Positions 3,776 to 30,584 of a DNA stretch of 64,000 nucleotides are shown one piece after another; the stretch's first letter is position 1, and the number at the start of each line of letters is the position of its first letter. This DNA comes from a virus (taxonomy: Duplodnaviria > Heunggongvirae > Uroviricota > Caudoviricetes): positions 52,285-116,284 of IMG/VR virus record IMGVR_UViG_3300029610_000357; one strand, 5' to 3'. A program made the position numbers and the translations under genes. The notes below the pieces were generated by a model, which had not been told where the DNA came from, searched no databases, and saw only the letters and a list, made by a program, of their open reading frames with translations.

Positions 3776-3869
3776 GCGTACGGACTGGGCTACGACCCCA
3801 GGATACACATGTTCGTATGTATACAGGATTAGCAATCCTGCGCATTAAACCAGCTCTGCCACCCGTACA
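3776..3869 (-). tRNA. tRNA-Ser (anticodon GCU), long variable arm
   Basis: The acceptor is GTACGGG/TCCGTAC. The D-stem is a 3-bp GCA/TGC stem, the anticodon stem is CAGGA/TCCTG with loop TTGCTAA, and a 22-nt variable hairpin (TATACAT...ATGTGTAT) precedes the T-arm CTGGG-GTCGTAG-CCCAG. Confidence 0.8.
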
Positions 3870-11329: not shown

Positions 11330-11356
11330 GCACGTATTTATGCGGGTTTGAGACCG
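11330..11356. repeat. 27-nt motif GCACGTATTTATGCGGGTTTGAGACCG (copy 2)
   Basis: It matches copy 1 at about 22 of 27 positions. Confidence 0.5.
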
Positions 11357-12232
11357 TTTGAAAAGATTTTTAAAAATAATTTTTTTAGGGTATTGCAATA
11401 TTTTCGTGGGCATGGTCTTATACAGTTGTTCAAACGAACAGGGAACTTGATAAAACAACAACCGGCAAGGGTTGTAAAACGTGCTTGCCAATATTTCAAC
11501 ATAAAAAGGGGGTAGCCCTACCCCTGTATAAAAATTGGGCGTGTACCTTGATAACTGAATAAGTCTGAATCCGTTCGGCAAGTCTCCGAACAGGTTCAAA
11601 AAATCAGTTTCTTTGGAAACTGAACGACAGGCTAAAACTCTGCCCTGTTACTCATTCGTGACAGGCAGACAAGTAAACCTTTGACTTATTGCCTGTACCC
11701 AATGTCACACGAACGTGGTACAGGATTTATAAGAAGTCGTTGCAAGTCCAAAGAAGTGTAGCAGATTTTTTGAATCGGTTCGCAAAAATACAGGTAGTGA
11801 CAGCCTGTAGACAAACTACCAAACAGACGAAAGACTTCCTAAACGATATATTTTATATTGCTTAGTATAGTCGATATGACAGGGTGTCAAACATTGACGG
11901 TTGACCCAAAACACGTTCACATACTATAAGTCCCTGTGGTGGTGGGGTCCTGTCTTTCAAGTGTTTGAGAAGCGTTGTTGTTGACACTATAACAGAGTAC
12001 CGCCCACGGTAGAAAGTTCTAACAGGCACGACAACGGCTCTCATTCGAGCTGGGTATATTGTGCATTGAATACTACTACTTATCTAGTTCAACGGTAGGA
12101 GACTAGACTCTGTGAAATAATAGGCTATGACAGGTGCAACCCCTGTATAGTATCGAGTGAGTGCATGAACACTTGCGAGCGGTCAAAAGTCCCTTTAGGG
12201 ATAATATTAGAACTCTGTGAGTTCATTAGAAT

Positions 12233-12247
12233 ACACCTAACAGGTGT
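12233..12247. promoter_or_regulatory. perfect palindrome ACACCTAACAGGTGT, an operator-like site upstream of the first plus-strand gene
   Basis: The palindrome is flanked by direct repeats TGAGTTCATTAG (12218) and TGAGTTCATAGG (12255). It sits 80 nt upstream of the ATG at 12328. Confidence 0.35.
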
Positions 12248-12327
12248 GGTCTAATGAGTTCATAGGAACTCAATGCAACAAATACATATTTTTTAGGGTA
12301 CGACTGTATCCGGAATAGGAGTTTATC

Positions 12328-13305
12328 ATGAGTAGAAAATCAACAAAAACAACAACAGTAGCAAACATTACACTACCAGTCCGTAAAATGGACTTCACAG
12401 AAGCAACTAAAGAATTCCGTACTCTTTGTCGCAATTTCTACACAGATTTTGAGAAAGTCGCAGAGAACAGGGAAGCTCTACGAGCAGAGAAAACAGAGTG
12501 TGAAGAACACTTTGACACTCGAGTAAACAATGCTTTTGACGTATCCGAACCTGTGGATACAGACAAAGAATTACCAGCGGAGTATGCAGACCTTAGGAAT
12601 ATTCTAGAAAAATATTCTGTAATACAGGCTACAGGTCTGCTTTCTAAGGAAGATAATGACTATCTTTCTGCACTTTGCGATAAGTGGAAAAAAGCTGACG
12701 CAAAGATTAGAAACTTAAAAAATCCAGTGCCTGAGAAGTCTCTAGTTGTAGATGCAATCTATGACCTATACAAGGGATGCTCTACAGATATGAGTGAAAA
12801 CCGTGACGGCTACGCTCGTAAAGTCAAGGGGTTCTTTGAATCTAAAGGCATGACACTAACTTCTTATGGTTGGGATGTGTTCAATGCTTCCATTGGGTTC
12901 AATGTGAATAATGACAAAAACTTCTTAGAGACAGGTAAGTTCTTCAACCCTATCAAAAAGAGCAAGTTTGTAGAAAGATTCTATATGTTCTTCTGTGAGG
13001 GGTTTGTAAGTGCAGATTGCTTCCCTAAGACTAAGAAAGCACGTCATGTAGATGCAGAAGAACAGGCACCAGTGGCACCTCAGAAAGTTGAAACACCTGA
13101 GGAAGTACATGAAAAGTGTGCAGACGCTCGTGCTGAAATCTCAGCTCAGAAACTGGGTACAACTGAGTCCAAACCAATGGACAAAATGACAGTGGCAGAG
13201 TTACGTACTTTCATTAAGAAACATGATACAACTGCCAAAGTATCTAAGTTGAAAAAAGCTGACTTAGTAGCTATGGCTACAAAGTTCACAAATGTAGCAG
13301 CTTAA
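12328..13305 (+). CDS. hypothetical Lys/Glu-rich protein with C-terminal SAP/Rho-N-like helix-hairpin (AELRTFIKKHDTTAKVSKLKKADLVAMA)
   Basis: The start is preceded by AGGAG. The C-terminal 35 aa resemble a SAP/Rho_N DNA or RNA-binding motif. Confidence 0.5.
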   Translation: MSRKSTKTTTVANITLPVRKMDFTEATKEFRTLCRNFYTDFEKVAENREALRAEKTECEEHFDTRVNNAFDVSEPVDTDKELPAEYADLRNILEKYSVIQATGLLSKEDNDYLSALCDKWKKADAKIRNLKNPVPEKSLVVDAIYDLYKGCSTDMSENRDGYARKVKGFFESKGMTLTSYGWDVFNASIGFNVNNDKNFLETGKFFNPIKKSKFVERFYMFFCEGFVSADCFPKTKKARHVDAEEQAPVAPQKVETPEEVHEKCADARAEISAQKLGTTESKPMDKMTVAELRTFIKKHDTTAKVSKLKKADLVAMATKFTNVAA

Positions 13306-15958: not shown

Positions 15959-16233
15959 CATCTTTAACATTGTTTGAACAACAATGTATGGAACAAAAGA
16001 TATTCAAACTGAAAACACTAAAAGATTTTGGTCATGCAACTTACAAAGGATTTACACTTCGCAATGGTTATAGATACGGAATCACAGAGGAAGACGGAAT
16101 CCATGTTGCGACTTCAAACTGGCAGCAAGGGAATTTCATTTACATGTACTTCTACAATGAATTAACAAACCAGTGGGAAGGATTGTGGATTGACTTAGAA
16201 GACGTAGAAATTGTGGAAGAGAAAGGAAATTAA
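15946..16233 (+). CDS. hypothetical protein
   Basis: A 95-aa ORF that overlaps both neighbours (translational coupling). Confidence 0.4.
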   Translation: MGTITSLTLFEQQCMEQKIFKLKTLKDFGHATYKGFTLRNGYRYGITEEDGIHVATSNWQQGNFIYMYFYNELTNQWEGLWIDLEDVEIVEEKGN

Positions 16234-16234
16234 G

Positions 16235-16675
16235 ATGGAAATTATAATTATTGCAAGTGCACTTTTTGGGATTATGACCGGATGGGTGTTAGGATACTCA
16301 ATTAAAGAAGCTGAGGTAAAAGATACAAAGAACTTAGTCGATAATCTGAACAAGTTAACCAGCAAAATAACCGAAGTCGAAAAGGAACTGGCAGAAACCA
16401 AAAAGGAAAGAGATTACGAAAAAAGCATGAACATTCATTGGTTCAATGAATATGAAAGAATACGAGAAAAACATTATAGAGAAATGTCAAAACTCCGCCA
16501 GCAAACGGACTTTTTCGCAGCTGATGGAATAGACAAGTTTGTGGAAATGCGAAAACTAAAAAGCAAATGTTCAGAAGCTGTCAAGTATGCTATGAAAATG
16601 TCTCATCCAGACAACAATGGAAACGCCGAAGACTTTATGAAGTTCAGAAAGCTTTATAAAGAAATAACAGAATAG
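16235..16675 (+). CDS. membrane-anchored J-domain (HPD motif) protein
   Basis: There is an N-terminal transmembrane helix, then a coiled coil. The C-terminus AVKYAMKMSHPDNNGNAEDFMKFRKLYKEI matches J-domain helix II, the HPD loop and helix III. A paralog lies at 40360. Confidence 0.55.
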   Translation: MEIIIIASALFGIMTGWVLGYSIKEAEVKDTKNLVDNLNKLTSKITEVEKELAETKKERDYEKSMNIHWFNEYERIREKHYREMSKLRQQTDFFAADGIDKFVEMRKLKSKCSEAVKYAMKMSHPDNNGNAEDFMKFRKLYKEITE

Positions 16676-16678
16676 GAA

Positions 16679-16984
16679 GTGAAACATATGTGGGAAATTG
16701 GAGATAGAGTGGTTGTTACTAAAGCCCCAGGTAGAACAATTGTAGCTAAGCTAGGCTACAAGGGAACAGTTATTGATGTAGTAGATACAAGCGTACTTGT
16801 TGAATTTGATAAATACATTGGTGGACATAGTGGAAGTTGGAGTTCTCGTAACGGAAAGTTCGGACATTGTTATTGGCTACATCAGCTTGACGATGCAGAC
16901 ACAATTGGGGCTTATGTAGACTTTGCTTTAAGAGAAGAAGACTGTGTGTGTAAGAAAATCAAAAGAAAAAACAACTTCTACTAA
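16679..16984 (+). CDS. tail-family member 1 (SH3/KOW-like MWEIGDRV N-terminus; ends KRKNNFY-stop)
   Basis: Part of the array whose members share a C-terminal [KR][KR]KNNY[YWF] tail. Confidence 0.6.
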   Translation: MKHMWEIGDRVVVTKAPGRTIVAKLGYKGTVIDVVDTSVLVEFDKYIGGHSGSWSSRNGKFGHCYWLHQLDDADTIGAYVDFALREEDCVCKKIKRKNNFY

Positions 16985-17002
16985 AAGAAAGGCAAGGTAA
17001 AC

Positions 17003-17302
17003 ATGAGAGAACTTAAACTTGAAGATTGTAAAGTTGGGATGACTCTTAAGCTAAAGGAAGATTGTCCTTTTAGAAAGTATTGGGAAATAGATCCTAAGGA
17101 ACCGGTAAAGTGCATTGTCGTAGCAATGAACAGGAGTCGAAAAGATAACATTTTTGTAGATATCTACTATGAACATGAGCGAAAATGTACCCCAAAGAAT
17201 TGGTATTTCTATACAGAGGATTCATTAATAGACACTAACGATGATGAACTAATCTCAAAAAACTTAGAGTATCCGAACAAGCGAAAGAACAATTATTACT
17301 AA
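17003..17302 (+). CDS. tail-family member 2 (EDCKVG type; ends KRKNNYY)
   Basis: Carries the conserved tail. Its stop overlaps the next gene's ribosome-binding site. Confidence 0.6.
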   Translation: MRELKLEDCKVGMTLKLKEDCPFRKYWEIDPKEPVKCIVVAMNRSRKDNIFVDIYYEHERKCTPKNWYFYTEDSLIDTNDDELISKNLEYPNKRKNNYY

Positions 17303-17312
17303 GAGGTGTAAT

Positions 17313-17639
17313 ATGCAGAAAGAAAGAGAAATTCAATTTGAAGATTGTCATATTGGCGATGTTTTTAAGTTAGATAGACGCTCGCCATGGGTTATGGAAT
17401 GGATAATGGAATCAAATGGATACATCCCTAGAGAAGAAATCACAGCAGAGATTGTACATATGATAAATAATGGTGACATCAAAGAAGTTGGAATAAATGT
17501 TTATATAGGTAAAGCTTCATATGATCATTATGATACTTCTTATCTCCGAGAGGGAAGTAGGTATAAGGAAGACAATCTTGAAATGAATCTTAAAATGAAA
17601 AATCGTATCAAAGCAGGAAGAAAGAACAATTATTATTAG
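17313..17639 (+). CDS. tail-family member 3 (EDCHIGDVF type; ends GRKNNYY)
   Basis: Carries the conserved tail. Confidence 0.6.
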   Translation: MQKEREIQFEDCHIGDVFKLDRRSPWVMEWIMESNGYIPREEITAEIVHMINNGDIKEVGINVYIGKASYDHYDTSYLREGSRYKEDNLEMNLKMKNRIKAGRKNNYY

Positions 17640-17649
17640 GAGTGGTTAT

Positions 17650-17958
17650 ATGAAGACAAAAGAAAGGGGAATTCGATTCGAAGATTGCCATGTTGGAGAT
17701 GTACTTAGGTTAAAAACAAGATGTCCTTTTGTGGACTTTTACCTTACATCTGAAGGAATTCCTGTGGCAAAAGAAGATAAGGTCACCGCAACAGTAGTTC
17801 ATAAAGGAAAAAATATTCTTGATGTAATAGTACATGTAAATGGAAAAAGATGTGCACTATATTGGGATTGTTGGCTTGCAAGTCCTACGGCTTATCGTGA
17901 ACATAATCTTCACATTAATGTCGATTCAAAGATTAATCGAAAGAACAACTATTATTAG
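17650..17958 (+). CDS. tail-family member 4 (EDCHVGDVL type; ends NRKNNYY)
   Basis: Carries the conserved tail. Confidence 0.6.
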   Translation: MKTKERGIRFEDCHVGDVLRLKTRCPFVDFYLTSEGIPVAKEDKVTATVVHKGKNILDVIVHVNGKRCALYWDCWLASPTAYREHNLHINVDSKINRKNNYY

Positions 17959-17983
17959 ATATAAGAGAAAGGAAAATAAGGCT

Positions 17984-18277
17984 ATGGGATATTTTAAAGT
18001 AGGAGATAGAGTAGAAGTTATTAAAAGCCATACCGAGGATTCATGTATTGATCACTATGCTCCTGTAGGGCTTAAAGGAACTGTAGTTTATACAGAACCG
18101 AGACATTTGACAAAGCAAATAGCTGTTGAGTTTGATAAGTCTTTTAAAGAAGGACACGGTTGTGATGGAAAAGTAAGAGGTAAGCGAGGGCAGTGGTATG
18201 AATATGATCCACATTCCAATATATATTGGAAAAATTGCTTAAAAATCTTATCCAAAAAGAAAAACAACTATTACTAA
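17984..18277 (+). CDS. tail-family member 5 (YFKVGDRVEV type; ends KKKNNYY)
   Basis: The start was moved to the Met preceded by GAAAGGAAA. Carries the conserved tail. Confidence 0.55.
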   Translation: MGYFKVGDRVEVIKSHTEDSCIDHYAPVGLKGTVVYTEPRHLTKQIAVEFDKSFKEGHGCDGKVRGKRGQWYEYDPHSNIYWKNCLKILSKKKNNYY

Positions 18278-18324
18278 AGGTATTTCAAAATCAGTGGAGT
18301 GATTTTTGTTAATACATGAAGAAA

Positions 18325-18350
18325 GGCGGGATTTATTCCCGTCTTTTTTC
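18325..18350 (+). terminator. rho-independent terminator
   Basis: The stem GGCGGGA/TCCCGTC is followed by TTTTTT. Confidence 0.5.
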
Positions 18351-18370
18351 AAAACAGAAAGGAAATTAAG

Positions 18371-18766
18371 ATGAGCAAATTTAGATATTTAAATGAAGAA
18401 GAAACAAAAGTGTTATTACAGGTAACAGAATGGTTAGATAATCATTTCTTTAGTCCAGAAAATAAATTCGATGAAGAATATTTTGAGAAATACATGAGAG
18501 CAATCATTGACAACACAAGAGAAATGTACGAAGCGGTATACATTTGTGTGAACACAAAACCTGTAACTGTAATGATTTATGACTATGTGCTTGACATTAT
18601 TATTGCTGATGCACGAGTTGACAAAGAAGATAGAGAGATTGTAGAGATTGCCTTTACAACTTGGTTAATAAACATGACAGATAAACCATTTGAAAAGATT
18701 TTTGAATGGATGATTGAAGAAAGTTACAGGGGAAGAAAAGGAAGAGAGGATGAAGATAATGAATAG
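18371..18766 (+). CDS. hypothetical protein (no tail)
   Basis: A 131-aa ORF preceded by GAAAGGAAA. It interrupts the array. Confidence 0.45.
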   Translation: MSKFRYLNEEETKVLLQVTEWLDNHFFSPENKFDEEYFEKYMRAIIDNTREMYEAVYICVNTKPVTVMIYDYVLDIIIADARVDKEDREIVEIAFTTWLINMTDKPFEKIFEWMIEESYRGRKGREDEDNE

Positions 18767-18902
18767 ATTTGAAACAGTAATGAAGTTAATTTGTTGGATT
18801 GCAGCAGTGACATTGGCATGGATGCACGTTTCAATTGTTGCAGTGATTGCACTTGCATTGGTTGGAACTTTTGGAAGCGAGGTTGATTTGAGTGCAAAGT
18901 AG
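18714..18902 (+). CDS. small membrane protein (start possibly an internal Met)
   Basis: A hydrophobic helix, ICWIAAVTLAWMHVSIVAVIALALVG. Confidence 0.35.
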   Translation: MKKVTGEEKEERMKIMNRFETVMKLICWIAAVTLAWMHVSIVAVIALALVGTFGSEVDLSAK

Positions 18903-19212
18903 AGAAACGAGAAGAAAAGTACACTTTGGAGATTGTCATGTAGGCGATATTTTTAAGATAAGTTTGGATAGTCCTTGGTATGAGAAAGTAGGTCAATACC
19001 AATTTGAATTTAGTAGCGTTACTCTGTTCACCACACTAACAGTCAAAGTAGAAAAAATAAAACCAAGAGATGGAACCGTTTTAACACGCTTTTATATTGG
19101 TAATACACCAACAGAGTATAAATGGTGGTTTTTTAGAACTCCAGGGTCTGATATAGAAGCACTATCAGATAATCTTGAGTTTCTACCAAAGAGAAAGAAT
19201 AACTACTGGTAA
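18892..19212 (+). CDS. tail-family member 6 (GDCHVGDIF type; GTG start; ends KRKNNYW)
   Basis: Its N-terminus aligns with members 3 and 4. Carries the conserved tail. Confidence 0.55.
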   Translation: MQSRETRRKVHFGDCHVGDIFKISLDSPWYEKVGQYQFEFSSVTLFTTLTVKVEKIKPRDGTVLTRFYIGNTPTEYKWWFFRTPGSDIEALSDNLEFLPKRKNNYW

Positions 19213-19220
19213 AGAGAGGT

Positions 19221-19544
19221 GTGAGGATGGAAGAGAAAAGAGAAGTATGCTTCGATGATTGCGAAGTTGGCATGTTTTTTAGGATTGATAAAGACTGTCC
19301 ATGGATGTATGACAATGAGTGGATGGATGGTTTTGATACATTGACAAACGCAGATGAGTTAAAAGTTAAAATTATCGATAAAGATGCTGATGATAGCAGT
19401 GTTGAGATAGAATTTTGGGCAGATGGTCAAAAGACAGATATAACAGATTGGCTCTATCAGTTTGAAGACGATCCAGAAGACAGAATTGGAAATAACCTTG
19501 AGTTTATATTAAAGAGGAAAAATAGAAAAAATAACTATTGGTGA
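19221..19544 (+). CDS. tail-family member 7 (DDCEVGMFF type; ends NRKNNYW)
   Basis: Carries the conserved tail. Confidence 0.6.
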   Translation: MRMEEKREVCFDDCEVGMFFRIDKDCPWMYDNEWMDGFDTLTNADELKVKIIDKDADDSSVEIEFWADGQKTDITDWLYQFEDDPEDRIGNNLEFILKRKNRKNNYW

Positions 19545-19554
19545 GGTGGTGTAA

Positions 19555-19815
19555 ATGGATAATGAATTAAAAATTGGAATGAAGTTCTTAGAAGTAAAAA
19601 CCGGAATTGTCTGGAAGCTTACAGATATGAATTTTATACAAGAAGGGTTTTATATAATAGACAAATCATTGTGTTTTCAAGCTGTACGTATAAATACAGA
19701 CGAGGATGATGTATGGAGAAGTACATCGTCAATGATACCTAAGACAATGCTCGAAAGAAGATTGAAAAAAGGCGAATGGAAACAAATAAACAATAGAAAA
19801 AACAATTACTATTGA
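19555..19815 (+). CDS. tail-family member 8 (ends NNRKNNYY)
   Basis: Carries the conserved tail. Confidence 0.6.
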   Translation: MDNELKIGMKFLEVKTGIVWKLTDMNFIQEGFYIIDKSLCFQAVRINTDEDDVWRSTSSMIPKTMLERRLKKGEWKQINNRKNNYY

Positions 19816-19837
19816 TTAATAGTAGAAAGGACATATT

Positions 19838-20977
19838 ATGGAGGATTTAAGATTAGTAACAACAGAAGAATTTAATGGAGTTGATTGCAACTTTTACAAG
19901 GCAGATAGTAACATGTGGATGACCAGAGGGCAGATTGGTAAAGCTTTAGGATATCACAACCCAAGGATTGCAATCGGGAAAATACATACTGCACATAGAG
20001 ATAGACTTGATCCACTTTCAGTTGATACCAATTTAGGGTCTACTGATGGAAAAGAATATTCTACTTATATATATAATGAAAGAGGCATCTTTGAAATCTG
20101 TAGATGGTCGAGACAGCCAAAAGCAAATGAATTTATGGATTGGGTATGGGACATTATAGAAGCTTACAGACATGGAGAATTCCAGAGAAAGCCTAGGGAA
20201 ACAGCCATTACACCTGTTGAGAAATTCTTAGATGGAATGCAGAATATGTTCTTAGAAATGAGAGAAGAGAACAAAATATTCAAAGATACTGTGTTGAAGA
20301 TTTTAGAATCTCAGCAAGGACAGGAAGTACAAAAACCTGTTGAAAAACTTGAAGCTCAAGAGAAAACTGTTAATCAAGTAAAAACAAAAGCAGCTGTTAA
20401 GCCAGTTGTTAAGATTGAAAACCCTAGATTAGACACTTGGAAGTTCGAAATTGGTACTAAAGCAGCTTATATTGTTTTTAATGGAAATGAATATAAAACA
20501 AAAGGAAAAGTATTCTCAGCATGTTATTCAAAAATGAAGAATGTGTATGGAATTTGTTGGTCACAGGAAAATAAAGAATACAGAAGAGCTTTCGGATTAG
20601 AATCTCAGAGAGGTAGATTAAGTACTTTAGATGTTGTATTCAATGATGAAAATTTGAAAGACCTGTTTGACAGTATTCTTGATGGAATATATGAAAACAC
20701 AAAAAGAAAAGCTATAAAGAAAAATACGGGAACCAATCCAGAAAAAGATTGGCAATATTATAAAGAAAAGATTCAAAAACTTTGTGAGCAAACAGGCAAC
20801 AAAAGTTTAGGCGGAAGCTCTATTTACTCAGGAATCATTAGAAAGATGGATGTAGACTGGAGCAAGTATGAAACAAACAAAAAGAAAACTGAATTAGTTA
20901 GAAAGTATCCAGAGTTATTTGCAGAGTTCTCTAAGACAGCGGATAAATATTTAGAGGAGAAGTTAAATGAGTATTAA
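19838..20977 (+). CDS. Bro-N domain antirepressor-like protein
   Basis: The N-terminus EEFNGVDCNFYKADSNMWMTRGQIGKALGY is the Bro-N / ORF6N signature. The gene has no tail and sits inside the array. Confidence 0.6.
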   Translation: MEDLRLVTTEEFNGVDCNFYKADSNMWMTRGQIGKALGYHNPRIAIGKIHTAHRDRLDPLSVDTNLGSTDGKEYSTYIYNERGIFEICRWSRQPKANEFMDWVWDIIEAYRHGEFQRKPRETAITPVEKFLDGMQNMFLEMREENKIFKDTVLKILESQQGQEVQKPVEKLEAQEKTVNQVKTKAAVKPVVKIENPRLDTWKFEIGTKAAYIVFNGNEYKTKGKVFSACYSKMKNVYGICWSQENKEYRRAFGLESQRGRLSTLDVVFNDENLKDLFDSILDGIYENTKRKAIKKNTGTNPEKDWQYYKEKIQKLCEQTGNKSLGGSSIYSGIIRKMDVDWSKYETNKKKTELVRKYPELFAEFSKTADKYLEEKLNEY

Positions 20978-21086
20978 AATTTTAGGGCTTCGTCAAGATT
21001 GCTACAAAGTAATCATTGATGGAGTCCTTTTTAAATTCCCAACAGAACAAGAGTTTTTGGAATTCTTAGAGGAGATTGAGATATGA
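20967..21086 (+). CDS. small hypothetical protein (39 aa)
   Basis: GGAGGAG precedes the start. Its start overlaps the upstream stop and its stop overlaps the next start (ATGA). Confidence 0.3.
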   Translation: MSIKILGLRQDCYKVIIDGVLFKFPTEQEFLEFLEEIEI

Positions 21087-21361
21087 GTTTTAGATTTGAA
21101 GTAGGTCAAGAGTTGGAATTACACAATAACTTGACGGATATGAAAGTTTACATGAGATCGGGAACGGTTGTTCGTATCTTAAGTAGAAAAACAAGAATGG
21201 ATCATACACAAGAGGTTGAGAGAAATCGTTACAAGATTGCATATGAATTTCATACAAATTTTTTGAAAATTGGAGATGGTTGTTGCCACTCTGGAAAAGA
21301 CTTTGTCTGGGAAGAAGATTTAATTAGAGCTGTCGGTCAACGGAAAAATAATTATTATTGA
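21083..21361 (+). CDS. tail-family member 9 (ends GQRKNNYY)
   Basis: Carries the conserved tail. Confidence 0.6.
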   Translation: MSFRFEVGQELELHNNLTDMKVYMRSGTVVRILSRKTRMDHTQEVERNRYKIAYEFHTNFLKIGDGCCHSGKDFVWEEDLIRAVGQRKNNYY

Positions 21362-21364
21362 GAG

Positions 21365-21643
21365 GTGATTAAAATGTGGAAAGTTGGAGATAGAGTCGTA
21401 ATTATTCAAGATACTAGGAGACCTTTAAAATCCTTTGTAGGCTTTAAAGGAACTGTTAACTTTGTAGAAGAGGATGGGATAGGTGTAGCTTTTGACAAAT
21501 ATGTAAACGGTCATATGTTAGGAGGGAGTTGCCAAGACGGTCATGGATGGTATTTGTCCACAGACGGAGAGAACGAAAACGAAGCCGAAGCAAATGGAGT
21601 AAGAGTCAAGAAAATTAACAACAGAAAAAATAATTATTGGTAG
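21365..21643 (+). CDS. tail-family member 10 (MWKVGDRVVII; ends NNRKNNYW)
   Basis: Carries the conserved tail. Confidence 0.6.
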   Translation: MIKMWKVGDRVVIIQDTRRPLKSFVGFKGTVNFVEEDGIGVAFDKYVNGHMLGGSCQDGHGWYLSTDGENENEAEANGVRVKKINNRKNNYW

Positions 21644-21925
21644 GTGATAGGAATGTGGGAAAAAGGTACAAGGGTTAGAATTATAAAATCAAATAGATCT
21701 ACAACACCAGTTGGTATCATAGGTACTGTGGTTTACATACGTAAGGATAAAAACGATCGTTTTATAGTAGAGTTTGACGAACCCATGGATGGGAATACCT
21801 TAACTGTTCTTTGTGATTGCAAACCGAACTGCTGGTGGTGGTTTGATAATGTTCCGGGGAGAGTTGTTGAAACAGATGGTATAACAATTGAAAAAATAGG
21901 AAAAAGAAAAAACAATTATTACTAA
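21644..21925 (+). CDS. tail-family member 11 (MWEKGTRVRII; ends GKRKNNYY)
   Basis: Carries the conserved tail. Confidence 0.6.
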   Translation: MIGMWEKGTRVRIIKSNRSTTPVGIIGTVVYIRKDKNDRFIVEFDEPMDGNTLTVLCDCKPNCWWWFDNVPGRVVETDGITIEKIGKRKNNYY

Positions 21926-21936
21926 GGTGGTGAGAA

Positions 21937-22249
21937 TATGTGGGAGATTGGAGATAGAGTGGCTGTTACAGACTTGGGCAAAGCCTCACAAGAGGATTTT
22001 GGAGTTGAAATAAAGGTTGGATACAAAGGAACTATTATCAACTTTTTAAAGGTTGCTGCCCCATGAAGTCCTGATGAGATAATTAAATTCTTAGTAGAGT
22101 TTGACGAATCCATGGGTGGACATAGTGGAAATGGAGCTTATGAAGGAAAGCGGGGACATTGTTGGTGGTTTGATTATTGTTTAGAAAAGGTTACTATCAC
22201 AGATGGCATAAGCATTGAGCAAGTCAAAAGGAAAAATAATTTTTACTAA
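21937..22249 (+). pseudogene. decayed tail-family member 12 (MWEIGDRV...KRKNNFY) with a 1-nt frameshift and an in-frame TGA
   Basis: MWEIGDRV reads in frame 0. The paralog-like continuation AVTDLGKASQEDFGVEIKVGYKGT needs a +1 shift at the GTGGG run near 21960. That frame then hits TGA at 22064 before continuing to KRKNNFY-TAA at 22247. Confidence 0.55.
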
Positions 22250-22252
22250 GGG

Positions 22253-22495
22253 GTGATTAAAATGTGGGAAGTAGGTGACAGAGTAGTAGTTACTCGTGGA
22301 ATTAAAGCTAGTAGCGTATTTGAGACTAAAGCGAAAGGGACAGTCATTGCTATAGATGCGGAATTTACAATACCCGTATTGGTTGAAATAGATGGAACAG
22401 GAACAAGTATGTGGTTCTATGAAAATGGTGATGATTTAATCTGGGGCGGCATTACTTGCACACGAGCAAAAAAGAGAAAAAACAATTATTATTGA
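22253..22495 (+). CDS. tail-family member 13 (MWEVGDRVVVT; ends KKRKNNYY)
   Basis: Carries the conserved tail. Confidence 0.6.
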   Translation: MIKMWEVGDRVVVTRGIKASSVFETKAKGTVIAIDAEFTIPVLVEIDGTGTSMWFYENGDDLIWGGITCTRAKKRKNNYY

Positions 22496-22511
22496 GAAAG
22501 GATGATGACAG

Positions 22512-22799
22512 GTGTTTAAGGTTGGAGATAGGATCGTATTAACAGAAGAAAGCCGCCAACATTGCAATATATTTGATGAACATCCGGGAGATATCGCAAC
22601 GGTTATTAGAGTTTCGCAAGTAACGAATGAACATGGTTATGAATGTGTTTTAGAATTTGATAAACATATTGGTGGACATGATGGATTAATCGATGCTAGA
22701 GGCAAGAACGGTCATTGTGTTATCTATTATTTTTGTTCAACACAGTGGGATAAGTATTTTAGGAAAATCCAAACCAAACGTAAGAATAACTATTATTGA
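22512..22799 (+). CDS. tail-family member 14 (GTG start; FKVGDRIVL; ends TKRKNNYY)
   Basis: Carries the conserved tail. Confidence 0.55.
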   Translation: MFKVGDRIVLTEESRQHCNIFDEHPGDIATVIRVSQVTNEHGYECVLEFDKHIGGHDGLIDARGKNGHCVIYYFCSTQWDKYFRKIQTKRKNNYY

Positions 22800-22814
22800 G
22801 AAAGAGGTGATCGT

Positions 22815-23132
22815 ATGCCAGAGGATGTAAAGTACCGTCCAGTTCCTAAAGGATATAAAGGTGTTTTTAGACTAAGAAAAGATATAATATCCTTAAACAA
22901 TGAATTTTATGGGGCATGGGGCATTATAGACGACAAATTTTTAATCGATGAAGATTATTATAATGAAGAAAATGAATTTAAGGGAGATCCTAGTCATGTA
23001 ATTCGAGCAAGTTTTTACCCTAGCCTTTTAGATCTGCAAAGAGGTGAAAATCTTATTAGAGAAGTAGGAAGAGTGTCTGGGACAGAAAAGTGTTGTTATA
23101 TTCCTTTTAAAAGAAAAAATAATTACTATTAA
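22815..23132 (+). CDS. tail-family member 15 (KYRPVPKGYKG type; ends KRKNNYY)
   Basis: It is a paralog of member 16. Carries the conserved tail. Confidence 0.6.
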   Translation: MPEDVKYRPVPKGYKGVFRLRKDIISLNNEFYGAWGIIDDKFLIDEDYYNEENEFKGDPSHVIRASFYPSLLDLQRGENLIREVGRVSGTEKCCYIPFKRKNNYY

Positions 23133-23147
23133 GAAAGAGGTGATCAA

Positions 23148-23462
23148 ATGGAGAATGATGGTAAATATCCTCCAGTACCTAAAGGATACAAGGGTATTTT
23201 TAGAGTTAGACCTGATATGATAGAGTCAAATAATGTGTTCTATGGAGCATATGGTATTACAGGAAAAGGTATTATAGAAGACAGTGATTATTTAGAAGAC
23301 CAAGGAGAATTTACAGGAAATCCACATCATATAATTAAAGCCATTTTTTATCAAACCTATGAAGACTTAAAGAGCAGAGAATGTATGATACAGGGAAGGC
23401 CTGTTAAAATAAGAGAATGCTTGCTTTATCCAGTATCCAACAAGAAGAACAATTACTGGTAG
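23148..23462 (+). CDS. tail-family member 16 (KYPPVPKGYKG type; ends NKKNNYW)
   Basis: Carries the conserved tail. Confidence 0.6.
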   Translation: MENDGKYPPVPKGYKGIFRVRPDMIESNNVFYGAYGITGKGIIEDSDYLEDQGEFTGNPHHIIKAIFYQTYEDLKSRECMIQGRPVKIRECLLYPVSNKKNNYW

Positions 23463-23472
23463 GTGGTTTAAG

Positions 23473-23742
23473 ATGATAGAAGCAAAAGATATTAAAGAGG
23501 GTATGAAAATTAAGTATGAAGGCTGGGAATGGACTATAACAAAAGTGTTTGCAAAATATAATAATGTCTTGGATCTTCGGAATGGTTATACTAAAAAAAT
23601 CATTGATCAAGATAGTTCATTGATTTGGATTGAAGCATCGAAGAGACGCTTTGTGCCTGAATCAATGACTATGGAATGGTTCTTTAAAGAACTGAAATAT
23701 GGAACAATAAAGATTTTAAATCGTAAAAATAATTATTATTGA
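23473..23742 (+). CDS. tail-family member 17 (ends NRKNNYY)
   Basis: Carries the conserved tail. Confidence 0.6.
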   Translation: MIEAKDIKEGMKIKYEGWEWTITKVFAKYNNVLDLRNGYTKKIIDQDSSLIWIEASKRRFVPESMTMEWFFKELKYGTIKILNRKNNYY

Positions 23743-23748
23743 GGTGAT

Positions 23749-24039
23749 ATGATGTATTTAGAAGACATTAAAGTTGGTCAGAGAGTGAATTATCGAGGTC
23801 ATTCCTATACAATAACTAAAAATGTTGTAAAGCGATGGAAAACAATAAGCCCCCATTCCTTATATTCATACATTAAGATAAGTACAAATTATTATAGATC
23901 ACGAATGTATTTCCAAAGAGTGGAAGACAAAAGTGAATCAGTTGACGGATTTTGGTTATTATATGACGAGATTGAAGAAAAAATGGATCGAGGGCTTATT
24001 AAATTTTTGAACATGTCAAAGAAAAATAATTATTATTAA
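23749..24039 (+). CDS. tail-family member 18 (ends SKKNNYY)
   Basis: Carries the conserved tail. It is the last member, immediately before the RT. Confidence 0.6.
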   Translation: MMYLEDIKVGQRVNYRGHSYTITKNVVKRWKTISPHSLYSYIKISTNYYRSRMYFQRVEDKSESVDGFWLLYDEIEEKMDRGLIKFLNMSKKNNYY

Positions 24040-24054
24040 AGAGGGTGTTACAAA

Positions 24055-25347
24055 GTGAACGAGATCAATAAAAGGAAATTAGAACTGTTCATGGATGATC
24101 AGCTATGGAGACAAAATATCACACATCAGCAAAGCAAAGGTGTACATAGAGATGTATTAAGAATTGTATGTGATCCAGAATACAAAGCACGGCTTTTAGG
24201 AATGATCTGGGATGGTAATTACAAAATTGCACCTCCGTATGTAGTAGAAATTCCTAAAGACAATGGAAAAGTAAGAGAAGTGTATGTTAATCAGCCAATT
24301 GACAGATTTGTTATGACACAAATCAATTATGTTTATATGCAATTATATGGTCATATGATTCATCCAAGATGTGTGTCTTATCAGAAAGGAATTGGAGTTA
24401 AAAATATCGTAGATGATATTTGTATGGAGCTTAAGAAACATCAAGGAGCTGTTGGGTATAAGGTAGACATTAGTAAGTATTTTGACAGTGTAAGCCGTGA
24501 GGTACTTAATGAAATGATTGATAAAATTGATACAGGAAGTCCTATTGATCAGATTGTAAGAGATTATTATATGGATGATTGTATCATTGATCAGAAAAGA
24601 AATGTTATTGAGAAATACAAAAGTATGACTCAAGGTTGTGCAGTGTCTACATTCTTTGCCAATTGTGTTTTAAGAGATGTAGACGAAGAGTTAAGCAAGA
24701 TGGATATTATTTATTACAGATATTCAGATGATATCTTGATGGTTGGTAAGGATGCAGATAAGGCTTTGAAGATGTTAGGAGAGATGTTAGAAACAAAAGG
24801 ACTTACATTAAATCCCAAAAAGGTAGAAACAGTCAGTACAGATCAATGGTTTACATTCTTAGGAGTGCGAATTAATGGACAGAAGAGAAGTTTTTCTGAA
24901 AAGAGCTTAAAGGAATTTCAGAAACACATTAGAGAATATGTAAATAAGAAAGCAGGAATTGGTAGCGTAAAAGTTGCAATCAGACAAATTAATAAATATC
25001 TGTATTTGAATTTCTTAAGGAATCCGAATGAGTTTGGTTGGGCTGAGTATTTCTTTAGTATTGTGAATGTCGAAGATGATATTAAGACATTAGATATGTG
25101 GATTAAAGATACACTCAGAGGTTTGTATACTGGTAAGAGAAAGGTTGGTGGTCTTGGTGTAAATAAAGTAACTGATGAATGTGGAGTATTAAGAGGGAAA
25201 GGAAAAAACGTAAGTGCAAATCTTGGTAAAACAAGAAGCGATAAAGACATTTTAGAAGAAGCAGGATATATCAGCATGAATGAAATGTATCATCAGTTTA
25301 GATACAGTAAAGAATTGTACAGGGCTTCATTGACGGCTTTATCTTAA
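24055..25347 (+). CDS. reverse transcriptase (orphan RT domain plus a roughly 120-aa C-terminal extension; class unassigned)
   Basis: The RT motifs are readable in order. Motifs 1-2 read PKDNGKVREVYVNQPIDRFV. Motif A is YKVDISKYFDSV, B' is QGCAVSTFFANCVL and C is YYRYSDDILMVG. The region LTLNPKKVE then follows, and after it FLGVRI. GTG start with an AGAGGGTG Shine-Dalgarno sequence. Confidence 0.8.
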   Translation: MNEINKRKLELFMDDQLWRQNITHQQSKGVHRDVLRIVCDPEYKARLLGMIWDGNYKIAPPYVVEIPKDNGKVREVYVNQPIDRFVMTQINYVYMQLYGHMIHPRCVSYQKGIGVKNIVDDICMELKKHQGAVGYKVDISKYFDSVSREVLNEMIDKIDTGSPIDQIVRDYYMDDCIIDQKRNVIEKYKSMTQGCAVSTFFANCVLRDVDEELSKMDIIYYRYSDDILMVGKDADKALKMLGEMLETKGLTLNPKKVETVSTDQWFTFLGVRINGQKRSFSEKSLKEFQKHIREYVNKKAGIGSVKVAIRQINKYLYLNFLRNPNEFGWAEYFFSIVNVEDDIKTLDMWIKDTLRGLYTGKRKVGGLGVNKVTDECGVLRGKGKNVSANLGKTRSDKDILEEAGYISMNEMYHQFRYSKELYRASLTALS

Positions 25348-25472
25348 GTCAAACCTAACACGAGGTACTTATGTGAGATGTTATAAGTCAAATTAGATCA
25401 CTAGGAAGCTCTGGTGATTCCATGCATGGTTGATAACCAGCATTCCATCACCACTTCTTCCCAGATCTTATC

Positions 25473-25493
25473 ATCATAAAGGGAATTTAGAAA
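25473..25493 (+). promoter_or_regulatory. conserved motif instance 0 (ATCATAAAgggaATTTAGAAA)
   Basis: It follows the imperfect hairpin GGTGATTCCATGC...GCATTCCATCACC. Confidence 0.4.
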
Positions 25494-25632
25494 CGTGTTA
25501 TTAACATGAACATAAGAAAGTTACTATGGACGTTGTATGTGAGACAATGGAATTACATATAAGGCGCGTTGAAGCTGCAGGATGACTGGCAATACATTGA
25601 CCAAGTCATCCCTGCAGCTCAACCGCTTTATA

Positions 25633-25652
25633 ATCATAAAAGAATAAAGGAA
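25633..25652 (+). promoter_or_regulatory. conserved motif instance 1 (ATCATAAAagaATAAAGGAA)
   Basis: It follows the 56-nt near-perfect hairpin at 25568-25623. Confidence 0.45.
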
Positions 25653-25807
25653 CATAGCATTATTGTGAGCATACAAACAAGCTAACATGGGCTAAACATA
25701 CGAGACGTTGAATCATACATAATAAGGGCACAGCTGCCTTATGCAGCGGGAAATTAGTCTCCTCGACAATAATTTCACCGCTGCCACAGGCGTGCGTGCC
25801 CTTATTA

Positions 25808-25827
25808 ATCATAAACCAATAGAGAAA
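25808..25827 (+). promoter_or_regulatory. conserved motif instance 2 (ATCATAAAccaATAGAGAAA), 35 nt upstream of the gene at 25865
   Basis: It follows the hairpin at 25725-25800. Confidence 0.5.
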
Positions 25828-25864
25828 ACATGTCGCCAATGTAGAGTATGTAGAAAGGAAAATC

Positions 25865-26401
25865 ATGAAAAGTTTATTTAAAGTATTGTATGAGCTGTCA
25901 CAAGGAAATACCTTAATGATTAATAGTTGCATGTCTTTTAGAATGACAACTGATCTATACAAAAGACAAGTGAGATTTAAGAAGTATAAGGTTGTTGATC
26001 AAGGAAGCGTAGTAAGTGATGTGACATTGTGTAGTGGAGAAGTTATTGAGTATGATGACTTAATAAAGGAAGGAGATTTAGATTTTATATTGCCAACTGA
26101 ATTAAATGAAAAAGAAAATCCATATGAGGTTATTGAATACCTGTATGGATTATTTTATTGCTCAGTTCCTGATAGATCTGCTGTTCAAAAGAAACAAAAT
26201 TTTATAGCAAAAGGATTAAATGATTTTGGGGCAAATGATTTTACAGGAATGAGAAGAAGTGAAATTCAGCCATTGTTAGAGCTCTATGTGTTACTCGCTG
26301 GAATGAAAGGATGGATCACTTGGAAAGATGATAAGTTGTTCTTTTGGAAAGGTGGACATAAGAGTTTGTATATATATAGAAAATGGATTTTAGGTTATTA
26401 G
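25865..26401 (+). CDS. hypothetical protein
   Basis: A 178-aa ORF preceded by AAAGGAAAA. Confidence 0.5.
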   Translation: MKSLFKVLYELSQGNTLMINSCMSFRMTTDLYKRQVRFKKYKVVDQGSVVSDVTLCSGEVIEYDDLIKEGDLDFILPTELNEKENPYEVIEYLYGLFYCSVPDRSAVQKKQNFIAKGLNDFGANDFTGMRRSEIQPLLELYVLLAGMKGWITWKDDKLFFWKGGHKSLYIYRKWILGY

Positions 26402-27180
26402 GAAAGGAAGAATGTAAAATGAATGTAGAAAAGAGTTTAGAAAAAGCAGGAGTAGACACAAAGAAATATCCTTCATTAGCTATGCAGAATATTTTAGGAT
26501 ATCAAGGGAAAGCGTTTGCAGAAAATTCATACCTGTATAAAAAGATTATGGAAGATGGACATGTGTTTAATCCTTATATACACAGAAGATGGCTTCCATA
26601 TCAGTTTATGAATGCTGTCCATTGGACAAGACGGTATTATGTAGAGACTATTGGTTATGTAAAGATGCTTGAAAAAGAATTGATGCGTGGCAATAATGTA
26701 GATAATTGGAAATATATGTACGATAAATTTGGAAAAGAGCTTAATGCTTTATATACACTCTCAAAAAGAGATAAAAAAGCGTATAAAGAAAGATGGGCTG
26801 CTTTTGGAAGGTTAGAAATTTTGAATTATTTTTCTCAAGGGTTTGATTGTATAGGGATAAATCAGAATACATTCTTGGAAATGAAAAATTTATTAGCGGA
26901 TGAAAGATTTGAAGCTGAACGATATTGGCGATATACTAATTGTTTATTGTATAAACAGTCACAATTTAGAAAAGATTTGGTAACAACAACTTTCCATTCA
27001 GGAATTTATTTTACATTAAAACACATTATGATGTTTGATTATGACAAATTACATATGTCTTCATCCCAAAAAGAAAGCCTAAAACGAATTAGAGAAGACT
27101 TAATTAATGGAGATTTCAATTATGAGCAGGCTTTTACAATTATTGAAGATTACGTAGCAAGATATTACAATCCAAGATAG
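26383..27180 (+). CDS. hypothetical protein
   Basis: A 265-aa ORF that overlaps the upstream gene. Confidence 0.5.
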   Translation: MDFRLLGKEECKMNVEKSLEKAGVDTKKYPSLAMQNILGYQGKAFAENSYLYKKIMEDGHVFNPYIHRRWLPYQFMNAVHWTRRYYVETIGYVKMLEKELMRGNNVDNWKYMYDKFGKELNALYTLSKRDKKAYKERWAAFGRLEILNYFSQGFDCIGINQNTFLEMKNLLADERFEAERYWRYTNCLLYKQSQFRKDLVTTTFHSGIYFTLKHIMMFDYDKLHMSSSQKESLKRIREDLINGDFNYEQAFTIIEDYVARYYNPR

Positions 27181-27193
27181 AGAGGGGAATTAT

Positions 27194-27691
27194 ATGCCAG
27201 AAGAAGTAAAGAAATTAACTATTAAAGAAGCAGATGAGTTTATTAAAAAGAAAGTAATCGGAGTTCTCATAAAAGCAGATGTAACAATAATAGTAAATGA
27301 ATTAGAAGCTATTTATGGAGATTCGTTAGCAAATGGAACGGTTGGAGATTCGTTTTATATTTATAACTGTCCAGAAAATTATGATGAATCAGATTATGAA
27401 GAGCTTGAGTATATTGACTATGATGATATGTGTGAAGATGATATTCGTGAAGAGAGAGCTGAAGCAGGAGATTTCAATCTTAAAGTATATAAGTGGTTCA
27501 TTGTTGATCCAAGATTTACAGAATTATTAAAAGATTTAGGAGAGATAGTTGCTCCAGATATTAACCTTTGGGGATGTTGTGAAGACATTGAAGACGCAAG
27601 CGAAGCAACTGTAATTGAAGAATTTTTTGAGAGAATGCAGATTCTGTATGGACAAAAGAATGCAATTATTACAGAAAAATTGAGTGCCTAA
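27194..27691 (+). CDS. highly acidic hypothetical protein
   Basis: The translation is Asp/Glu-rich throughout. GAGGGGAA precedes the start. Confidence 0.5.
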   Translation: MPEEVKKLTIKEADEFIKKKVIGVLIKADVTIIVNELEAIYGDSLANGTVGDSFYIYNCPENYDESDYEELEYIDYDDMCEDDIREERAEAGDFNLKVYKWFIVDPRFTELLKDLGEIVAPDINLWGCCEDIEDASEATVIEEFFERMQILYGQKNAIITEKLSA

Positions 27692-28807: not shown

Positions 28808-29596
28808 ATGGCAACAGAGTTTGACAAACGAATGAAAGCTTATGAATGTGTCTCAAGACAGTACTTAACAAGAAGAGTACCAGTTGCGATCAGAGTAGAT
28901 GGAAAGGCATTTCATACATTCACTAGAGGGTTTCAGAAACCGTTCGATGAAGTGCTTAGCAATGCAATGCAGGCCACAATGATGAAAATGTGTAGACAGA
29001 TTCAAGGTTGTGTGTTTGCTTACACACAGAGTGATGAAATTACATTTATTCTTATCGATTATCAGAAGCTAAATTCTGATGGCTGGTTTAACTACCGTAC
29101 TGATAAGATGTGTAGCATTGCAGCGAGTATGGCTACTATGGAGTTCAATAAGGTATTTAGTGCTTTTGTTTATGGATTTAAGGTAAACAAGGGAGAAGAC
29201 ATATCAAGTGAAGATATGGAAGTGCTTAAAGCCTATGAGAAATCTAAAGAACGTGGAGCTATGTTTGATGCTAGAGCATTTTCAATTCCAAAAGAAGAAG
29301 TTACGAATCTAATTTATTGGAGACAGCAAGACGCTATGAGGAATGCAGTTCAGATGGTTGGACAAGCATTTTATTCCCACAAAGAGCTTCAGGGTGTTAA
29401 TTGTGAGATGCTTAAAGAAATGTTACTGGCTGATAAGGGAATTGATTGGGATAAGATTCCTGTGAAATATCAGAGAGGTAGCTGTTGTGTCAAGGTTGAT
29501 GGTGAATGGACTATTGACAATAACATTTCTATCTTCAGAGGTAGTGACAGAGAGCAAATTGATAAGCTTGTGTTTGTTGAGAGTGAAGAGAACTGA
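28808..29596 (+). CDS. Thg1-like protein (tRNA-His guanylyltransferase family, 3'-5' nucleotidyltransferase)
   Basis: The N-terminus YLTRRVPVAIRVDGKAFHTFTRGFQKPFDEVLSNAMQATMMKM...AYTQSDEITFIL follows the Thg1 pattern (VRxDGxxFHxFS...KPND...GQSDE). Confidence 0.65.
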   Translation: MATEFDKRMKAYECVSRQYLTRRVPVAIRVDGKAFHTFTRGFQKPFDEVLSNAMQATMMKMCRQIQGCVFAYTQSDEITFILIDYQKLNSDGWFNYRTDKMCSIAASMATMEFNKVFSAFVYGFKVNKGEDISSEDMEVLKAYEKSKERGAMFDARAFSIPKEEVTNLIYWRQQDAMRNAVQMVGQAFYSHKELQGVNCEMLKEMLLADKGIDWDKIPVKYQRGSCCVKVDGEWTIDNNISIFRGSDREQIDKLVFVESEEN

Positions 29597-30573: not shown

Positions 30574-30584
30574 AGGGAAGAAAG

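Follow-up and report, generated by a model that had tools for sequence, protein, structure and literature searches.

A constant C-terminal peptide on an array of small, diversified proteins in a human-gut phage

Why would a phage carry a tandem set of small proteins that differ in their bodies and share one ending? The question is raised by 64,000 nucleotides of a tailed-phage genome (IMG/VR record IMGVR_UViG_3300029610_000357, positions 52,285 to 116,284). We call this whole stretch the window, and positions below are its own unless a related locus is named. Scanned in six frames, the window holds exactly 18 open reading frames (ORFs) that close on KNN[YF][YWF] before the stop codon, every one of them on the plus strand between 16679 and 24039. 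When the window was shuffled 300 times in 1-kb blocks, the mean number of such ends was 0.013 and the maximum was 1. The motif is strictly terminal, with 18 terminal occurrences and 1 internal one across the six frames. The small proteins of the array, early or accessory in kind, form a multigene family specific to one clade of phages, and their genes lie in tandem in one co-directional, tightly packed block. A first-pass annotation, made by a model from the letters alone, had placed an invariant tail at the end of every copy, and the scan and the shuffles bear it out. That annotation had also counted 18 consecutive genes of 80–108 amino acids (aa); the 18 tail-bearing ORFs stand, but one of them (T12) is interrupted by a TGA, and the proteins span 77–108 aa when likely ATG starts are taken.

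The terminal peptide and its carriers

Motif statistics were drawn from 378 distinct C-termini gathered with the pattern NN[YF][YWF]. The consensus is [KN][RK]-K-N-N-[YF]-[YW]-COOH. Position −7 is K, N, S or Q; −6 is R (298) or K (78); −5 is K in 373 of the 378; −2 is Y (329) or F (49); and −1 is Y (285) or W (93). From −7 to −1 the information content is 2.4, 3.5, 4.2, 4.3, 4.3, 3.8 and 3.5 bits, the values for the two Asn at −4 and −3 being set by the collecting pattern and not independent measurements. The boundary is sharp, with about 1 bit from −8 on upstream. The tail begins right after the last hydrophobic strand, and flexibility is predicted for it; in the AlphaFold2 model of a family B protein (T03), the last 12 residues (97–108) have a predicted local distance difference test score (pLDDT) below 50. 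Across three sublineages of these phages the tail is unchanged, though a neighbouring 574-aa protein falls to as little as 48% identity. Pfam, PHROGs, NCBIfam and PADLOC contain no described family bearing the tag, motif strings returned chance strings alone from the full-text literature, and literature searches for comparable phage arrays gave nothing relevant. The tag is found in no library, solved structure or paper, in agreement with the first-pass view that no described family has a basic-NNY-aromatic end, and the nearest known things are analogies, not families.

Is it the peptide or the DNA that is held constant? Codons were compared in tail genes of the window and related loci, 223 distinct nucleotide sequences in all, and column-by-column variation was scored within 19 orthologue groups. 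Conservation at the nucleotide level, as a recombination joint, an A/U-rich translational enhancer or an RNA pairing site, would suit the A/U-rich codons of K, N and Y and the observation that homology blocks between relatives start and end in the tail/Shine–Dalgarno/start junctions, where cassettes are reshuffled. However, synonymous sites in the tail are as variable as those in the bodies (14 of 88 codon columns, 16%, against 193 of 1084, 18%), and codon usage is alike (AAT for Asn, 68% in tails and 71% in bodies; TAT for Tyr, 72% and 77%; AAA for Lys, 65% and 66%). Copies differ in their use of AAC/AAT, TAT/TAC and AAA/AAG, all of five Arg codons occur (AGA/CGA/CGT/CGG/AGG), and the stops vary. 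Exchanges are conservative in chemistry (Y/F/W, R/K) and not nucleotide by nucleotide; they include Y to W, which needs two changes. DNA repeats that span the tails are merely 60–88% identical, and A/U richness would not require the ordered invariance of K-N-N-Y-Y. Amino-acid change, by contrast, affects 1 of 95 tail columns (1%) and 530 of 1675 body columns (32%). Because synonymous variation equals that of the bodies, replacements are conservative and the DNA repeats have diverged, the tail is a constrained peptide, kept by selection on its amino acids, and a nucleotide-level cause is largely refuted. The first-pass claim that selection acts on the peptide thus holds, and the recently spread DNA repeat that it had named as a possible weakness is not what the sequences contain.

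The bodies tell a different story. After the last 9 residues had been cut off, BLAST clustering, hhalign and iterated hidden Markov model (HMM) searches split them into six or seven sequence families without detectable mutual similarity, two D subgroups excepted, where four N-terminal families had been described before. Tail-less hhalign probabilities were at most 5% for every family pair save T17 and T18, the two D subgroups, and the iterated HMM searches stayed inside family borders. Pfam SH3_12 (PF18129, Xrn1 SH3-like) matches T05 at 31.3 bits, above its gathering cut-off of 26.2 bits, and T01 at 21.7 bits, below it; the remaining eight proteins tested gave no match, and some database orthologues carry a precomputed PF18129 annotation. 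In the family libraries, bodies otherwise gave weak SH3-like matches for family A and a weak elongation factor P (EF-P) KOW match for family D (EFP_N, E = 0.018), and families B, C, E and F had no match in Pfam, PHROGs, NCBIfam or PADLOC. A Foldseek comparison of the family B model with viral structures gave nothing below E = 0.017. An N-terminal hGDxhxh strand is common to families A, B, D, E and F, and an aromatic strand about 22 residues from the end to families A, B and D. These features point to SH3/Tudor/KOW-like small β-barrels, a peptide- or nucleic-acid-binding fold class, for families A and B and, weakly, for D; families C, E and F could be given no fold. It is plausible that one ancient barrel, diverged past recognition, was the source of the families. 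Family C gave no barrel signal, and its AlphaFold2 model (T15) was unusable (pLDDT 38.6).

The bodies also evolve quickly. Their net charge spans −16 to +4, and their ratio of non-synonymous to synonymous polymorphism (pN/pS) has a median of 0.48 (range 0.15–0.89). Neighbouring genes lie at 0.03–0.25 overall (reverse transcriptase (RT) 0.05, E1 0.06, Thg1 0.03–0.05, Band7 0.03–0.08, JAMM 0.15 and the 574-aa protein 0.21). At non-synonymous sites the bodies outpace these neighbours three- to fivefold. The tail proteins have neither a signal peptide nor a transmembrane segment, and an N-terminal hydrophobic stretch is not obvious by eye. With that, their 77–108 aa and two families of the barrel class, we set aside arbitrium/RRNPP pro-peptides; the window has no TPR or AimR-like match. 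A diversity-generating retroelement was likewise rejected: 16000–27500 contains no template/variable repeat pair, and the longest direct repeat there is the T15/T16 paralogue pair (73% identity).

Where does the tag occur? The matches returned by profile searches of 5.8 billion proteins were all small and encoded on metagenomic contigs no longer than 270 kb. Among the matches listed, about 95 of 120 in family A and nearly all in the other families end in the tail; the remoter SH3-like homologues recovered (P0109–P0120) lack it. A DNA pattern of two tails spaced 255–285 nucleotides (nt) apart found 22 stretches in IMG/VR, which come from 12 contigs of a single dataset. Metagenomes gave 22 as well, of which about 17 carry several tail-ending ORFs and belong to the clade, the rest being single or chance matches; one matching metagenome record is a human gut metagenome. 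Among 185,579 GTDB species genomes the pattern gave one stretch, in Companilactobacillus. That stretch has a single ORF ending in the tail, and we therefore found no prophage or host. With a pattern of one tail, more than 116 stretches matched, compared with 41 when its codons were shuffled as a control, and among the matches listed only those of the same clade terminate an ORF of at least 60 codons. A tail-centred HMM searched against 1.84 billion representatives, in which a 7-residue motif alone cannot attain significance, returned three clade members and one spurious repeat protein. Megablast of window 16–26 kb against INPHARED phages gave no match. One tail protein has a database entry, as a hypothetical protein from a Lachnospiraceae metagenome-assembled genome. 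Identity of the RT to that of the window divides the clade into three sublineages, at 97–100%, 94% (L199) and 85–86% (L051 and L201), and the tail is present in all of them. Two genes of the window (54630–58961) share out DNA polymerase III alpha, one with a PHP part and one with a finger/HhH part. The search used the larger of the two (56559–58961); it has 43% identity with yorL of Bacillus phage SPbeta, which places the phage among SPbeta-like viruses. The tag is confined to one narrow clade of SPbeta-like human-gut phages of about 130 kb.

Within the window the tail genes, all on the plus strand, are designated T01 to T18 in order and are given here from start to stop position. Family A (SH3-like) comprises T01 (16688–16984, tail KRKNNFY, SH3_12 E = 2e-4), T05 (17984–18277, KKKNNYY, SH3_12 2e-7), T10 (21374–21643, NRKNNYW), T11 (21653–21925, KRKNNYY), T12 (21938–22249, KRKNNFY), the short T13 (22262–22495, KRKNNYY) and T14 (22512–22799, KRKNNYY). 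The ORF tool starts T01 at GTG 16679; its orthologue P0013 begins MWEIGD. To family B (EDCxVG) belong T02 (17003–17302, KRKNNYY), the modelled T03 (17313–17639, GRKNNYY), T04 (17650–17958, NRKNNYY), T06 (18892–19212, KRKNNYW) and T07 (19221–19544, NRKNNYW), whose strongly acidic body has the net charge of −16. T15 (22815–23132, KRKNNYY) and T16 (23148–23462, NKKNNYW) make up family C (KYRPVPKGYKG), and T17 (23473–23742, NRKNNYY, the EFP_N match) and the final gene T18 (23752–24039, SKKNNYY) family D, with an hhalign probability of 85% between them. T08 (19555–19815, NRKNNYY) stands for family E and T09 (21083–21361, QRKNNYY) for family F. Tail-less genes on the same strand break up the array: two conserved ORFs at 18371–18902 (131 aa, 18371–18766; 62 aa with a hydrophobic stretch, 18714–18902) and a Bro-N antirepressor-like gene (19838–20977, Bro-N 1e-7). 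In most tail genes a GAGG/GGTG Shine–Dalgarno-like site lies 0–3 nt 3′ of the stop. TAA, TAG and TGA all serve as stops, each followed by a Shine–Dalgarno site and an ATG, and on these grounds we rejected recoded stops or a polyprotein. The T18 stop lies 15 nt before the GTG of the RT gene at 24055, exactly as first described.

The membership of the array turns over. Even near-identical phages differ in tail-gene copy number. Window 21365–21925 and L001 2334–2897, within flanks that are 93–98% identical, have the T10 and T11 orthologues in opposite order, and extra tail genes are inserted. T12 is a chimera of two family A paralogues, left by a 5.3-kb deletion, and carries an in-frame TGA where relatives have TGG, so the array consists of 17 intact genes and one disrupted gene. 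The same deletion, there with an intact chimeric gene, occurs in two other samples (L202 and L203) that keep their arrays. The array grows, shrinks and reshuffles through recombination between paralogues and at the tail/Shine–Dalgarno/start-codon junctions.

Readings of the tail

What could hold seven terminal residues constant on bodies that change so fast? The reading we favour, tentatively and as one that may well prove wrong, is that the array encodes diversified binding proteins with one constant C-terminal docking handle. Taken together, the terminal position, the sharp 7-residue boundary, the invariant polar and aromatic residues, the flexibility, the fast-evolving binding-module bodies, the turnover of members and the restriction to one clade are best explained by a short linear motif with one reader and by bodies that supply the diversity, as variable binders on a constant handle. 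The tail would be read together with its free carboxylate by one shared partner, the two aromatics and two Asn fitting a pocket and the basic residues lying on an acidic rim. Each diversified barrel would bind a different target, making the array a library of variable binders, and in host takeover or counter-defence each member would hand its target to one machine or be recruited by it. Two kinds of partner are candidates: a hub of the host, for instance an AAA+ unfoldase or protease, and the E1-JAMM cassette that relatives of this phage encode.

Several points weigh against this proposal. The partner is hypothetical. The array tail has almost no linker after the last strand, unlike SspB XB and other classical tethering tails. 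In some families the tail could instead contribute to oligomerisation or to the fold. A pN/pS of 0.5 would be expected of relaxed constraint no less than of an arms race. Because the RT is at least 85% identical across this narrow clade, all arguments from co-occurrence rest on few independent lineages.

One candidate partner lies inside the arrays themselves. In nearly all relatives a 5.3-kb cassette splits the array (L001 4029–9167; also L051, L199, L201 and others). It encodes a 121 + 79 aa pair, a 114 + 79 aa pair, and proteins of 574, 321 and 227 aa. The 227-aa protein is a ThiF/E1 (Pfam 1e-21) whose nearest solved relatives are UBA5, MccB and MoeB, with weak matches to BubCD and Cap2, and it matches E1-E2 models in PADLOC. 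The 321-aa protein carries an exact, conserved JAMM motif (HxHx7Sx2D), and MLSAVVKADSA[MF] is the unvarying end of the 79-aa proteins. Apart from the ThiF/E1, the cassette proteins (four) had no match in PADLOC, Pfam or NCBIfam; the JAMM, 574-aa, 79-aa and 121-aa proteins gave no hits against PDB sequences; no E2 was recognised in the cassette; and literature searches for phage E1-JAB systems gave nothing relevant. The E1 lies within the array in three sublineages and is deleted in the window, L202 and L203, where the arrays are kept. The window lost its cassette through recombination between two family A paralogues, with T12 (21938–22249) as the scar. Because the same deletion recurs in the two further samples with arrays, the cassette is dispensable, at least in the short term.

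A narrower form of the binder proposal is that the array is a library of substrate receptors or modifiers for a phage ubiquitin-like conjugation machine made up of the ThiF/E1, the JAMM protein and the 574-aa protein; we consider this unlikely. Each SH3/Tudor-like barrel would pick a different host protein and KNNY[YW]-COOH would plug into the machine, much as F-box receptors share one ligase core. A second version would have the tail itself activated, at the carboxylate.

The main rival, unlikely too in our estimate, makes the tail a site of covalent chemistry for the same cassette. In one form the E1-like enzyme would adenylate the terminal carboxylate, the tail proteins being ubiquitin-like modifiers, and in the other the invariant Lys at −5 would accept the 79-aa candidate ubiquitin-like proteins. 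There is precedent for enzymes of this kind at a C-terminus, in that Cap2 acts on that of the cGAS/DncV-like nucleotidyltransferase (CD-NTase). The same cassette is enclosed by the array in all three sublineages, the 574-aa protein is restricted to the clade, and a strictly C-terminal, invariant, flexible tail after the last strand has the anatomy of the ubiquitin tail, which is likewise C-terminal, flexible and placed after the last strand. The 79-aa proteins, too, hold an invariant C-terminus, with a bulky M or F last. Yet intact arrays persist where the cassette is missing, in the window and at least two further samples, the cassette brings its own candidate modifiers, and co-location in a narrow clade may be plain synteny. 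The bodies are SH3-like and not β-grasp, and they end in Tyr or Trp and not in Gly; as ubiquitin-like modifiers by fold, the tail proteins were rejected on these two features. We know of no E1 that activates an aromatic C-terminus, and eighteen modifiers would be, to our knowledge, unprecedented.

We regard it as decidedly unlikely that the tail is a C-terminal degron for a host AAA+ protease, like the MuA-type ClpX C-motif 2. Such a degron would make every array protein short-lived and synchronise their loss, or would overload the protease. In its favour, the tail stands strictly at the end and would need the carboxylate, it is flexible, the genes lie in an early/accessory region, and a basic cluster is followed by two hydrophobic aromatics. 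That last resemblance is one of composition: C-motif 2 has a basic cluster and then terminal hydrophobics (RRKKAI-COOH). Degrons for conserved host proteases are usually degenerate and widespread, however, whereas this tail does not vary over its 7 residues, two of them Asn, and is limited to a single clade of phages. A degron would also leave unexplained why just these small barrels bear it.

Might the tail instead have no external partner? One ancestral barrel could have duplicated in tandem, the tail remaining as an unchangeable part of the fold or of an oligomer interface, such as a subunit contact in homo- or hetero-oligomeric rings. The similar gene sizes and tandem order, the two shared strands described above, the SH3-like fold class of families A and B and the observed recombination between paralogues would all fit. 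In the sole usable model, however, the tail is of low confidence and unpacked, and conservation falls abruptly at −8 without grading into the domain. Family C has no barrel signal, and a polar, basic, free-ended tail is atypical of a core element. We judge this improbable.

Distinctly improbable is an address label, either a capsid packaging/ejection signal or a signal for targeting to one cellular location or complex, much like the trafficking motifs that otherwise unrelated effector families have in common. It would account for the same short motif on fast-evolving, sequence-unrelated proteins and for its specificity to one clade. The array, however, lies in the accessory/replication arm far from recognisable structural genes, known capsid-targeting sequences need no strictly terminal position (those of T4 are N-terminal), and signal peptides and transmembrane segments are absent. 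A role in cis, as a nascent peptide at the stop that tunes termination or pausing for re-initiation on the next Shine–Dalgarno site, would suit a tail that always stands immediately 5′ of the stop, a stop that abuts the next such site, and a conserved length that equals the part of the chain in the upper exit tunnel. It is very improbable all the same: the tail is kept before gaps of 93 nt (after T05) and 187 nt (L001 3841 to 4029), tail-less ORFs of the same block are coupled just as tightly, three different stop codons are in use, and there is no Pro or other known arrest signature.

The adjacent UG27 system, radical SAM genes and genome surroundings

The first-pass annotation had read the gene after the array as an orphan RT that might extend DNA from the terminal Tyr, and had suggested that downstream radical S-adenosylmethionine (SAM) enzymes might modify the tail. 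That the array adjoins the RT in every clade member and that two radical SAM genes lie in the window would favour such enzymatic roles, which we now find scarcely tenable. The RT is no orphan. It belongs to a complete UG27 system, separate from the array, at 24055–27180 (+), with matches to the RT_UG27, RTas346 and RTas337 profiles and three hairpins. The RT itself (24055–25347, +) matches PADLOC RT_UG27 over its full length (3.2e-168). It is followed by a 517-nt gap with three long hairpins (25348–25864, +; z = −9.6), consistent with the structured non-coding RNA, by an sORF of 178 aa (25865–26401, +; RTas346, cluster 346, 2.4e-13) and by a bORF of 265 aa (26383–27180, +; RTas337, cluster 337, 5.1e-10). 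This is the published architecture of RT, structured non-coding RNA hairpins and two accessory proteins (PMC9226505). An AbiK/Abi-P2-type protein-primed RT was rejected: the top PADLOC model is UG27, with no Abi model among the best 25 of 72.

UG27 was described from over a thousand dereplicated gut phage genomes (PMC9226505) and later counted at 14,000 loci (bioRxiv 10.64898/2026.09.22.753630). Its product is reported to be short single-stranded DNA hairpins, which are abolished by deleting either accessory ORF or by mutating the RT active site, and RT, sORF and bORF jointly support complementary DNA synthesis in E. coli (bioRxiv 10.64898/2026.09.22.753630). Such a system needs no tail proteins, and synthesis primed by a tail Tyr is not supported. 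The tail array is not a described component of UG27, and we rejected the tail proteins as a conserved or required part of what is a three-protein system. Our own search for remoter UG27 loci, with a single RT protein, returned the same clade only. Since UG27 is found in thousands of gut phages and tails in one clade (about 12 IMG/VR contigs), the adjacency of array and RT is best read as synteny.

The radical SAM genes fare no better as modifiers of the tail. The first (rSAM1, 30552–31553) is RlmN/Cfr-like and absent from 7 of 13 array-bearing relatives (L003, L026, L030, L044, L051, L053 and L054). The second (rSAM2) has weak MoaA-like similarity, with no match below E of about 1e-5 in either library. 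A ribosomally synthesized and post-translationally modified peptide precursor with a radical SAM maturase was rejected, because rSAM1 is not co-conserved with the arrays. rSAM1 is a variable accessory gene between an antirepressor and an SPFH gene, present in the window and 6 related loci; in two loci that lack it (L053 and L054), a Lar-like restriction alleviation gene lies just upstream of the antirepressor.

The array sits in an accessory arm that runs from a strand switch near 11–12 kb to the replication module, among genes for antirepressors, NUDIX, Thg1, SPFH, a sigma factor, a recombinase, DnaB, polymerase III alpha and RecD2. A promoter/terminator scan found as many as expected by chance. 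At the point where gene orientation and GC skew reverse, about 1.8 kb (10500–12330) is poor in ORFs and may serve as a control region or origin, or encode RNA. A full-length ROOL RNA (Rfam RF03087, 306 bits; 2594–3205, −) is surrounded by seven tRNA genes on the minus strand (2262–3868). Just after the SPFH gene, an Rfam tRNA match extends over 150 nt (32482–32631, +; 42.5 bits) that ARAGORN does not call, perhaps a tRNA interrupted by a long insertion or intron, perhaps a tRNA-like element. This tRNA-carrying phage also has a gene for a Thg1-like tRNA-His guanylyltransferase (28808–29596; Pfam 8e-32), which is kept in all relatives.

Significance and comparison with known systems

The feature is sharply defined and experimentally tractable, and its distribution is narrow. 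If the tail is a common handle, each phage would have some 15–20 interchangeable, rapidly evolving small binders wired to one machine, a compact and modular attack on many host targets at once that is undescribed for phages. The tag is also useful experimentally: one peptide could serve as bait for the reader, and loss of the tail could disable the whole set. A portable 7-residue tag with a dedicated reader might become a tool for tethering, degradation or conjugation. The link to the E1-JAMM cassette, if real, would extend ubiquitin-like signalling from bacterial defence to the phage side. On a conservative reading, the array is a clean natural case in which selection has fixed a short linear motif and the domains that carry it have diverged beyond recognition.

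Among known systems, SH3/Tudor/KOW-like barrels (PF18129 SH3_12, EF-P domain I, FeoA and Tudor) resemble the bodies, and none has a basic-NNY-aromatic terminus. The cassette of the relatives resembles Bil/Bub operons and the Cap2/Cap3 operons of cyclic-oligonucleotide-based antiphage signalling systems in combining a ThiF/E1, a JAMM protein and small proteins with an invariant C-terminus. It differs from them in being phage-encoded, in having no recognised E2, in candidate ubiquitin-like proteins that end in M or F and not in G, and in its absence from the window. RxLR/PEXEL effectors and polymorphic toxins likewise combine fast-evolving, unrelated bodies with one short motif and are clustered and shuffled by recombination. 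RxLR/PEXEL motifs are N-terminal trafficking or processing signals in secreted proteins, whereas the array motif is C-terminal, on cytoplasmic phage proteins without an export signal.

The closest parallels to the tail itself are C-terminal recognition tails: those of ubiquitin and ubiquitin-like proteins, read by E1; SspB XB and the MuA-type C-motif 2, read by ClpX; and the HbYX motif of proteasome activators. In these the free carboxylate is part of the signal, and one reader serves many carriers. Like them, the array tail is short, strictly C-terminal, flexible and basic and/or aromatic, although it has no GG, LRVVK or Hb-Y-X. The known recognition tails each mark one protein family, whereas the array tail marks six or seven unalignable families in tandem.

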